Of a stretch of 64,000 nucleotides of DNA, positions 3,114 to 9,079 are shown in pieces. The position numbers were made by a program, and so were the translations under genes. This stretch comes from Sphingomonadales bacterium (GTDB lineage Bacteria > Pseudomonadota > Alphaproteobacteria > Sphingomonadales > Sphingomonadaceae): contig JAAURJ010000009.1 of NCBI GenBank assembly GCA_012032285.1, positions 2,269 through 66,268 of the forward strand. Reading direction: 5' to 3'. Below the pieces are notes generated by a model that saw only the letters and a program-made list of their open reading frames with translations, did no database searches and had not been told where the DNA came from. Positions within the stretch are counted from its first letter, which is position 1; every line of letters begins with the position of its first letter.

Positions 3114-4002
3114 ATGAGCCAGCTCATCGCCGAATATCGCAGCCATTTAGCGAATAACCGCCGCCAATCGGGTGCGACCGTCCAAGCTTATGGCGCCACC
3201 GCAGAACGATTGGTCCTGTTCCTTCAAGAACATATCGGCGATGCCATAACCCGCGATACGCTCCGCGAAGTGAAAGCCGCCGATTTGCGGGCTTTTCTTG
3301 CCTATAGGAGGGGAGACGGGCTGACCAACCGGTCCACGGCACGCGAGCTGTCGGCAATTCGCAATTTTCTGCGCTTTGCCTTGGGTGAAGAGGCGAGCAT
3401 TCCCGCCATTAAGGGCCCGCGAATGCCGCGCAGCTTGCCCCGGCCGGTGGCCCCGGACGATGTGCTGGCCATGGCAGATGATATCGCCGAAACCGCAAGG
3501 GAAAGCTGGATCGGTGCCCGTGACTGGGCGGTGCTGTTGCTGCTTTATGGCAGCGGGCTTCGGATCAGCGAGGCGACGGGGCTATCGGGCGATATCCTGC
3601 CTTTGTCCGAAACGCTGCGCGTCACCGGAAAGCGCGGCAAAACCCGTATCGTGCCATTATTGCCGCAAGTGCGCGGTGCGATAGAAAAATATCTGTCTGT
3701 CTGCCCCTATCCGCCTGCTAAGGACCAGCCGCTGTTTCGCGGCGCAAGAGGCGGCGCTCTTTCACCGGCGATCATCCGCCGCGCCGTGCAAGGGGCGCGC
3801 AAACGGCTGAACCTGCCGGAAAAAACCACGCCCCACGCCCCTGCGCCACAGCTTTGCCACGCATTTGCTGGCGGGCGGCGCGGATTTACGCAGCCTGCAG
3901 GAGCTGCTCGGCCATGCCAGTTTGAGTTCAACACAGGTCTATACCGGCGTCGATACCGCGATGCTGCTCGATGAATACGCGAACGCGCATCCCAGGGCTT
4001 GA
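3114..4002 (+). CDS. xerC: Tyrosine recombinase, XerC type (apparent +1 frameshift at C-run 3838-3841)
   Basis: [16 protein letters not shown]; removing one C gives [14 protein letters not shown]...[16 protein letters not shown]...AHPRA*. Confidence 0.8.
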
Positions 4003-4065
4003 ATCCAAGCTATTATTGATAATGCCCGCTGCGTTTGTCTTTAGGGTCAGGCCCTAGCGACATTT

Positions 4066-4093
4066 CGTCATTCCCGCGAAGGCGGGAATCCAG
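4066..4093 (+). repeat. CGTC-type REP palindrome, left copy (CGTCATTCCCGCGAAGGCGGGAATCCAG)
   Basis: Internal hairpin ATTCCCGC-GAAG-GCGGGAAT; inverted partner at 4423-4450. Confidence 0.9.
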
Positions 4094-4105
4094 TAACGAA
4101 GCGGA

Positions 4106-4417
4106 ATGCGCGAAGAAAAACTCCCGGCAGTATACATTCTGGCATCTGGCCGGAATGGCACATTATATATCGGCGTAACTTCAAATTTACTGCTTCGTAT
4201 TTCGCAACATCGCTTGGAGACATTGGAAGGCTTCACCAAAAAATATGGCATCAAATGCCTTGTATGGTTTGAGCAGCATTCGGTTATGGAATCGGCAATC
4301 CGCCGCGAAAAACAGCTGAAGAAATGGAACAGAGCATGGAAACTACGTCTAATCGAGGAAAATAACCCCGACTGGTGCGATCTGGCCGAGGATTTCGGAT
4401 TCGATCCGCTGGCGTAG
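4106..4417 (+). CDS. Stand-alone GIY-YIG nuclease (about 100 aa)
   Basis: AVYILASGRNGTLYIGVTSNL..R..QH...GFTKKY...LVWFE...AIRREKQLKKWNRAWK; Tyr/Arg/His/Glu catalytic pattern appears intact. Confidence 0.9.
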   Translation: MREEKLPAVYILASGRNGTLYIGVTSNLLLRISQHRLETLEGFTKKYGIKCLVWFEQHSVMESAIRREKQLKKWNRAWKLRLIEENNPDWCDLAEDFGFDPLA

Positions 4418-4422
4418 GAAAA

Positions 4423-4450
4423 CTAGATTCCCGCCTTCGCGGGAATGACG
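4423..4450 (-). repeat. CGTC-type REP palindrome, right copy
   Basis: CTAGATTCCCGCCTTCGCGGGAATGACG is the reverse complement of the left copy at 27/28 positions. Confidence 0.9.
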
Positions 4451-4575
4451 CCGTTTGGAAATTGAAACATCATTCAATCAACACCATACCCGTTCTACCC
4501 GGATGTTGAGCCTTCGCATTCTGTCGCCACGAAAATTCGATTTCGACCAAAAATTTCGATTTCGGTGCGATTCTG

Positions 4576-4704
4576 TCAATTTCTTTCCATGCGTCTTGCG
4601 CGGATTGCCCTATCAATTGTCTCACTATCTGTGCTTGTATTGAACCAAATCTTTAATGTGCTCAGATTGGGAAATATGGCATCACTGACTCTGATTACGG
4701 GCAT
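4576..4704 (-). CDS. Small ORF (42 aa), ribbon-helix-helix-like pattern; possibly a truncated gene
   Basis: GGAGG at 4713-4717, then MPVIRVSDAIFPNLSTLKIWFNTSTDSETIDRAIRARRMERN*; below the ORF-track length cutoff. Confidence 0.45.
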   Translation of the reverse strand: MPVIRVSDAIFPNLSTLKIWFNTSTDSETIDRAIRARRMERN

Positions 4705-4751
4705 AATTGCTTCCTCCATATTTCTTCAATTGAGAATATGTTACCTATTCT

Positions 4752-8304: not shown

Positions 8305-8458
8305 CTTCGACAAGCTCAGCCTGAGCGCGGGGCAATGTGGTGATTTATCCTAAGCGCTCAGCCTGAGCGCGGGGTAATGCGGTGATTTTCCCTATGCGCT
8401 CAGCCTGAGCGCGGGGCAATGCGGTGATTTATCCTATGCGCTCAGCCTGAGCGCGGGG
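8305..8458. repeat. Tandem array of four 42-bp-period palindromic units derived from a REP end
   Basis: GCTCAGCCTGAGCGCGGGG starts at 8314, 8356, 8398, 8440; 23-nt linkers nearly identical; headed by CTTCGACAA. Confidence 0.95.
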
Positions 8459-8518
8459 TGTGGCCGTGCTTCATGTAATAGCGCTCAATCTATGCGATAC
8501 GTGCTTAAACCCAGCCGC

Positions 8519-9079
8519 TCAGGCCGCCTTGCGCTGTTTATCCAGTTTTTTCAGCACCATTTGCCGTTTCAAACGGCTAAGATGGTCGATGAACAATATG
8601 CCTTCCAAATGATCCATTTCATGTTGGAGGCAGGTTGCCATAAGCCCTTCCATGTCCTCTTCATGGACATTCCCGTCCAGATCCTGCCACCGGGCGCGAA
8701 TGGCGGCGGGGCGGTCAACCTCTGCATATTGATCGGGCACCGACAGGCACCCTTCATTATAACTGGCCATATCCTCTGAGGGGTCAAGGATTTCCGGGTT
8801 TATAAAGATGCGCGGATTGCGGATCACATCATGGTCATGATTACAATGTTCGCCATGTTCATGATCATGGCTGTGCGGAGCCGGTTCCTGAAGGTCGATC
8901 ACCAGCACACGCTTTGGCACGCCCACTTGTATCGCGGCCAGCCCAATGCCCGGCGCATCATACATGGTTTCAAACATATCCTCGACCAGCTTGCGCAGAT
9001 CGGCGTCAAATTCGGTGACCGGCTGCGATATGGTTTTTAATCGCGGGTCGGGCACTTCTAAAATCGGTAAAATAGCCAT
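8519..9079 (-). CDS. def: Peptide deformylase with His-rich insertion
   Basis: [24 protein letters not shown] motifs. Confidence 0.97.

Follow-up and report, generated by a model that had tools for sequence, protein, structure and literature searches.

What is the small gene found between xerC and gshB in this sphingomonad genome, and what is its relation to the two hairpins that bracket it? The window (the whole 64-kb stretch of DNA that we analysed) holds at positions 4066-4450 a unit of 385 bp in which, from the reading of the sequence, there is one gene, two inverted hairpins and no other cargo. An earlier note on this DNA, made from the sequence alone, had likened the layout to RAYT/REP elements and proposed that the nuclease recognises or cuts its own hairpins. 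The features of the locus are given below, under the names used in the Ssn/NTS system described in March 2025 (Chenal et al. 2025, Nat Commun 16:2388, PMC11893778); both cleavage zones are predictions by inference only.

4058 to 4065, plus strand: predicted Ssn cleavage zone, located a few nucleotides from the left CGTC tag on its 5' side
4066 to 4093, plus strand: left NTS, with the CGTC tag, the 8-bp stem ATTCCCGC, the GAAG loop, the stem GCGGGAAT and the tail CCAG
4106 to 4417, plus strand: ssn gene, encoding a single-domain GIY-YIG nuclease of 103 aa that belongs to the Ssn family (Pfam and homology to SsnA)
4423 to 4450, minus strand: right NTS, an inverted copy with the tail CTAG and the CGTC tag outward (sequence, consensus fit and ssDNA fold)
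4451 to 4458, minus strand: second predicted Ssn cleavage zone, placed 5' of the right CGTC tag at a distance of a few nucleotides, on the same grounds as the first

The left element (4066-4093, plus strand) reads CGTCATTCCCGCGAAGGCGGGAATCCAG, the reverse complement of the right one reads CGTCATTCCCGCGAAGGCGGGAATCTAG, and the two are identical at 27 of the 28 positions. The open reading frame starts with an ATG at 4106, 12 bp after the left element, and ends after 103 codons with a TAG stop at 4415-4417, 5 bp before the right element. These distances, the near identity of the copies and the GAAG hairpins are in the sequence exactly as the earlier note described them. It was also correct in seeing no target-site duplication: upon inspection, no direct duplication abuts the ends of the cassette (...ACATTT/CGTC ... 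GACG/CCGTTT). The 20-bp core of the repeat occurs twice in the 64-kb window, when 0.03 occurrences are expected, and none of 100 shuffles contained two or more. As single-stranded DNA (ssDNA), both copies fold into ATTCCCGC-GAAG-GCGGGAAT, with energies of -10.1 (left) and -8.9 (right) kcal/mol and z-scores from -2.7 to -4.0.

Both repeats match the NTS consensus CGTCATTCCCGCGMAVGCGGGAATCYRG, an oriented form of dRS3, with zero mismatches (Chenal et al. 2025, PMC11893778). In Neisseria, binding depends critically on the C that follows the palindrome and cutting on the GTC that precedes it (PMC11893778), and the left NTS keeps both. The repeats also belong to a class defined earlier among the CGTC-tagged REPs, CGTC-1, which corresponds to the dRS3 of Neisseria and to the RPE-6 of Rickettsia (Di Nocera et al. 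2013, BMC Genomics 14:522, PMC3733652), as the earlier note recognised when it invoked a described class of palindromes and the dRS3 pattern. All the sequence features of the class are present, i.e., the CGTC tag, the 8-bp stem starting with AT, the 4-nt loop and the CCA-like tail (CGTC-ATTCCCGC-GAAG-GCGGGAAT-CCAG). The likeness extends to the predominance of head-to-head dimers, to intragenic copies and to a mostly alphaproteobacterial distribution. The term 'REP family' used in the earlier note holds for the type of repeat but not for its abundance: CGTC-1 REPs are dispersed in high copy number, and in the 2.78-Mb draft genome we counted no more than 4 NTS copies, against up to 49 in congeners. 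The other difference concerns the enzyme. A dedicated one was denied to these repeats in 2013, whereas both here and in the 2025 paper they are consistently accompanied by a GIY-YIG gene.

We then analysed the protein. It matches the Pfam profile GIY-YIG (PF01541, E 7.7e-14, residues 8-80) and lacks a second domain. Its identity to the 94-aa SsnA orthologue of N. gonorrhoeae (L044:1495-1776), whose ORF has NTS copies on each side, is 69% (E 6e-46). Through this orthologue, the protein falls within the Ssn family as delimited by Chenal et al. 2025 (PMC11893778), i.e., by a blast E < 1e-10 to the SsnA of N. meningitidis (Nm). Similarly, its assignment to cd10448 (GIY-YIG_unchar_3) is a proxy made via the match to the N. 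gonorrhoeae orthologue. The Nm SsnA variants Y6A, Y17A and E64A keep binding and lose cleavage (PMC11893778). These three residues align with Y10, Y21 and E68 of the window protein, which are, together with R31 and H35, among the invariant columns of an alignment of 37 homologues.

The AlphaFold model of the protein (pLDDT 89.9) is one compact domain, and its best neighbours in the PDB are all GIY-YIG: UPF0213 (1ZG2), Slx1 and the N-terminal domain of UvrC. They share the catalytic core, but they act on branched or damaged duplex substrates with partner domains or proteins, whereas Ssn is a stand-alone sequence-specific ssDNase. We do not retain the parallel drawn by the earlier note with structure-specific nickases such as SLX1, which would act on duplex cruciforms: the endonuclease described in the literature cuts only ssDNA (PMC11893778). 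An I-TevI-type GIY-YIG homing endonuclease is also unlikely, given the absence of a second domain and the strict ssDNA specificity of the published Ssn enzymes. Other resources added little. A sequence search of the PDB gave only spurious matches and no close relative with a solved structure, searches of NCBIfam and PHROGs gave no match, PADLOC gave a marginal one (E 0.009) and Rfam a single one below threshold (FtrB, E 0.08).

Homologues of the gene are widespread but patchy: we found more than 590 in a scan of species-representative genomes, and homologues from many phyla share 60-74% identity with the window protein. NTS or related motifs were reported to flank 71% of the homologues of ssnA, a 94-aa single-domain GIY-YIG gene, and to be on both sides of 42% (PMC11893778). 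We re-tested this association using the best 80 of the more than 590 homologue loci, from many phyla. A YGTC-tagged hairpin lies at 250 bp or less from the gene in 77 of the 80 loci, and on both sides of it in 55. With the canonical NTS (at most 3 mismatches), the numbers are 58 for at least one side and 35 for both. Across the 80 loci, the hairpin density reaches 5.3 per kb beside the gene and drops to 0.34 per kb farther out in the flank, a 16-fold enrichment; the control of the hairpin search with reversed sequences gave 6 and 21 hits. The exact geometry of the cassette (a coding-strand copy upstream of the gene, an inverted one downstream, both tags facing out) recurs at 30 of the 80 loci. 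The class of the hairpin stem is clustered on the protein tree, with 29 changes for a mean of 39.3 in shuffled data and none of 200 shuffles as low. The earlier note had asked if flanking palindromes are conserved and co-vary with the protein, and on both counts they do. Among 40 relatives, genomes with 4 or more NTS copies tend to be those that have ssn (13/2/6/19, Fisher p 2e-4, uncorrected for phylogeny). In one relative of the same order (G035), which carries 41 NTS copies, no homologue of ssn reaches E <= 1e-5. These orphan hairpins show that the repeats can persist gene-free.

The hairpins could have been generic REP-like terminators or mRNA stabilisers in intergenic DNA, next to a nuclease that acts elsewhere. 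On the minus strand, the right hairpin indeed scores as a terminator-like structure and precedes a T-rich run, and REPs are often downstream of genes (Di Nocera 2013, PMC3733652). Yet such an incidental association is extremely improbable in view of the 16-fold enrichment beside ssn genes across phyla, of the co-variation of hairpin type with protein clade, of the three pairs of paralogue and hairpin family in a single genome (see below), and of the published binding and cleavage data (PMC11893778). We conclude that the unit is very probably an NTS-ssnA-NTS cassette, that is, the gene of a putative site-specific ssDNA endonuclease of the Ssn family bracketed by its cognate hairpins. It is an ordinary representative of a system already described in 2025. 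It shares with that system the single-domain GIY-YIG protein of around 100 aa, the catalytic Y/Y/E, the exact fit to the NTS consensus and the NTS-gene-NTS layout (PMC11893778). It differs by its host, a sphingomonad-like alphaproteobacterium with 4 NTS copies vs the hundreds in pathogenic Neisseria, and by two further paralogues using hairpins that are outside the SRM search pattern of the paper.

The mode of action can be tentatively drawn from the homologues. SsnA binds NTS only as ssDNA and cuts it a few nucleotides upstream, leaving uncut the complementary strand, duplex DNA and RNA (PMC11893778). Cleavage that is ssDNA-only, adjacent to the hairpin and strand-specific was published for four Ssn homologues, with specificities that vary between them (PMC11893778). 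In the sphingomonad, we would expect the monomeric enzyme to bind the NTS hairpin, through both its sequence and its shape, once the tagged strand (read from CGTC to CCAG) is exposed as ssDNA, as shown for the homologues of Neisseria and Wolbachia. In the presence of Mg2+, it would then cleave a few nucleotides 5' of the tag and spare the duplex, RNA and the complementary strand. Since the tags face outward, the predicted cuts are just outside either end of the cassette, one per strand. That the nuclease recognises and cuts its own hairpins, as the earlier note proposed, is supported by biochemical data in the literature, obtained with a homologue of 69% identity and the same hairpin. The preference for hairpins and ssDNA, whose absence the note counted among the refutations of its proposal, is published for the homologues (PMC11893778). 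Its statement that no mechanism is established is outdated since the description of Ssn/NTS in March 2025 (PMC11893778).

A nuclease that cuts its own flanking motif could also spread by homing. Free-standing GIY-YIG homing endonucleases exist, and one can imagine that Ssn cuts NTS sites devoid of the gene, whose recombinational repair then copies the gene into head-to-head NTS 'slots'. The gene does lie within an NTS pair whose tags face outward, arranged like the dimers lacking an ORF, and the rplT-pheS spacer contains an NTS dimer alone in this genome vs ssn and NTS in three congeners. We nevertheless regard homing as quite improbable. Duplex DNA is left uncut by the published Ssn enzymes (PMC11893778), the 103-aa protein has no separate DNA-binding domain, the spacers of the ORF-less dimers are dissimilar to the inner edges of the cassette, and the ssn genes at rplT-pheS are just 56-58% identical to that of the window.

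The cognate pairing of nuclease and hairpin finds a parallel within the host. Three ssn paralogues are encoded in its draft genome (2.78 Mb in 96 contigs), and a distinct CGTC-type family flanks each of them.

Family A (NTS): the 4066-4093 element; 4 copies; with paralogue C90, the window cassette
Family B: CGTCA[CT][CG]CTGAACTTGTTTCAG...; around 16 copies; with paralogue C51
Family C: CGTCATTGCGAGCG...CAATCCAG; around 15 copies; with paralogue C77

The C51 paralogue groups with a homologue of Citromicrobium bearing the same B-type hairpin (SH-aLRT 95). The degenerate SRM pattern of the paper showed no enrichment in the host genome, with 12 hits vs 10 in the reversed control, and it missed families B and C. 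We found no match to the HUH/Y1 transposase (PF01797) anywhere in this genome. The B-type ssn and its five or six hairpins, located at C51:3200-3960 and so not in the window, lie between imperfect 48-nt direct repeats (MIQSLLIANRGEIACR / MIRSLLIANRGEIACR). This 48-nt repeat is the 5' end of a biotin-carboxylase-like gene, and it looks as if the block had entered just inside that gene, bringing or regenerating a new start.

Two of the four NTS copies of the genome are those of the cassette, and the others start head-to-head dimers, one inside ileS and one in the rplT-pheS spacer. The dimer in ileS (C45:41106-41200, outside the window) is in frame within a 978-aa ORF and is part of an extra segment of around 40 aa (RHSREGGNPASAPSSELDGPVMDPRLRGGDGMSDAEWERALEFY) that is absent from seven congeners and present in G023. 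The ileS of G003 has a different insert of around 60 aa at the same spot, and the ileS insert has ambiguous boundaries. The insert resembles the palindromic elements found inside genes of Rickettsia. In the second dimer (C62:2518-2610, outside the window), which stands alone in the rplT-pheS spacer, a tag (CATC) overlaps the start codon of pheS; the spacer of three congeners (L109, L111 and L113) has ssn and NTS hairpins. ORF-less NTS dimers have come to occupy new sites, one of them in frame within ileS. With only 4 copies of NTS, a genome-wide role of the Ssn/NTS system in this host is doubtful.

The genomic context of the cassette varies in the genus. The spacer between xerC and gshB holds dedA in at least 11 congeners, it is empty in G023, where the two genes are 39 bp apart, and it has other content in G013 and G019. 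In G011 it contains NTS copies and an ssn (64% identical), which is oriented the other way and has its repeats arranged differently. Synteny is therefore not fixed, contrary to one of the outcomes that the earlier note considered fatal to its proposal. The empty site that the note hoped to find in relatives exists only in part: G023 has the 39-bp spacer, but the congeners compared do not provide a clean filled/empty pair, and the cassette here replaces dedA. Other sites appear more stable. B-type cassettes lie between ruvA and ruvB in 4 congeners and A-type cassettes between rplT and pheS in 3, and their presence at the same sites in several species indicates long vertical retention. Two exact-match scans of metagenome contigs gave no match.

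Composition gives information on the origin of the cassette. The ssn ORF has 47% GC and the adjoining 300 bp have 41%, against 58-61% in the neighbouring genes. Together with the 60-74% identity to homologues from many phyla, this suggests a foreign origin. These 300 bp (window positions 4451-4751) separate the right NTS from the stop of gshB and take the place of the dedA of most congeners; we searched them for a dedA remnant, for further copies in the genome and for an Rfam match, and found none. On the other side, xerC has a frameshift at a run of C (window positions 3826-3840, with one extra C relative to the relatives), which puts its catalytic C-terminal part in a different frame, by an error of the draft assembly or because xerC is a pseudogene. 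At 9 bp 5' of the left NTS, positions 4042-4056 (TAGGGTCAGGCCCTA) correspond to the end motif of a different repeat family, present 27 times in the genome. The complete terminus of this family is approximately TAGGGTCAGGnCCTATTAAATACCCATTCGAGG, several of its copies are at contig ends, and it includes a MITE-like unit of around 270 bp at C12:62024-62295. Further along the window, positions 8305-8524, upstream of def, contain around 4 tandem units of around 42 bp, each with GCGCTCAGCCTGAGCGCGGGG, that are unrelated to NTS.

Could the cassette be more than a nuclease gene with its cognate sites, namely an autonomous minimal transposon in which Ssn mobilises CGTC REPs and moves both the cassette and the ORF-less NTS dimers? 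This would be an addition to the explanation given above and not a substitute for it. The resemblance of the NTS-ssnA-NTS layout to insertion sequences and to RAYT/REP was already pointed out (PMC11893778), but that paper does not cite the CGTC classification of 2013 and did not tie the likeness to CGTC REPs. Di Nocera 2013 (PMC3733652) found no transposase for the CGTC REPs and concluded that a dedicated enzyme is absent, and the genome analysed here has neither Y1 nor RAYT. The inverted terminal hairpins without other cargo fit the idea, as do the predicted cuts just beyond both ends, the low GC, the patchy spread over phyla and the ORF-less head-to-head dimers, including the in-frame one in ileS lacking in 7 congeners. 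So does the variable occupancy in the genus, with dedA in at least 11 congeners, a 39-bp spacer in G023 and an ssn of opposite orientation in G011. Against it, GIY-YIG enzymes hydrolyse DNA, and we know of no strand-transfer or rejoining activity in the superfamily. The cassette has no target-site duplication, no second identical copy and a family of 4 NTS copies only; similar cassettes seem to have been retained vertically for long at ruvA-ruvB (4 congeners) and rplT-pheS (3), and at xerC-gshB the cassette replaces dedA instead of making a clean insertion. On balance, we find such a transposon unlikely.

A related proposal is that Ssn is the enzyme missing from the CGTC superfamily of Di Nocera 2013, with cuts at outward tags driving the insertion, exchange, inversion or loss of the enclosed DNA. 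The presence of three cognate pairs of paralogue and repeat in one genome argues for it, as do the variable occupancy of the site, the reversed ssn of a congener, the low GC and the lack of RAYT, and we put it forward tentatively, as an idea with perhaps a minor chance of being right. Under this proposal, the mobilised DNA may be ssn itself and ORF-less dimers such as that of ileS, and the 385-bp unit may be a minimal autonomous element that is transposase-free and relies on hydrolytic GIY-YIG chemistry and host repair.

The cassette can also be compared with REPtrons (RAYT and GTAG REPs). Both have one small gene between inverted copies of a dispersed hairpin, recognition of hairpins in ssDNA, and a single-copy gene that is seemingly domesticated. 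However, RAYT is an IS200/IS605-type HUH Y1 enzyme with a covalent intermediate capable of rejoining, whereas here one finds GIY-YIG hydrolysis and the tag CGTC, not GTAG. The earlier note rightly presented the layout as a parallel without a transposase, since the genome has no HUH/Y1; membership of RAYT/REPtron itself is rejected because the enzyme is a GIY-YIG and Y1_Tnp is absent from the genome.

In summary, we favour the reading of the locus as an Ssn cassette, which looks like a horizontally acquired passenger, selfish or domesticated, and not like an actively multiplying element. In Neisseria, SsnA reduces transformation by NTS-bearing DNA, an effect shown only in this naturally competent genus (PMC11893778), and the only competence-related gene that we saw in the host is a homologue of ComEC. 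The most likely role in the sphingomonad, as extrapolated from the homologues, would be the trimming or restriction of NTS-bearing ssDNA, be it incoming, replicative or an intermediate of recombination, thereby modulating recombination. The locus adds a sphingomonad example to the Ssn system published in 2025. Its genome is a clean and small test bed, since it has three Ssn paralogues, each beside its own low-copy hairpin family, and no RAYT. It is thus suited to address, with few confounding copies, the specificity of each nuclease for its cognate hairpins and the possibility that Ssn moves or maintains CGTC-type repeats.
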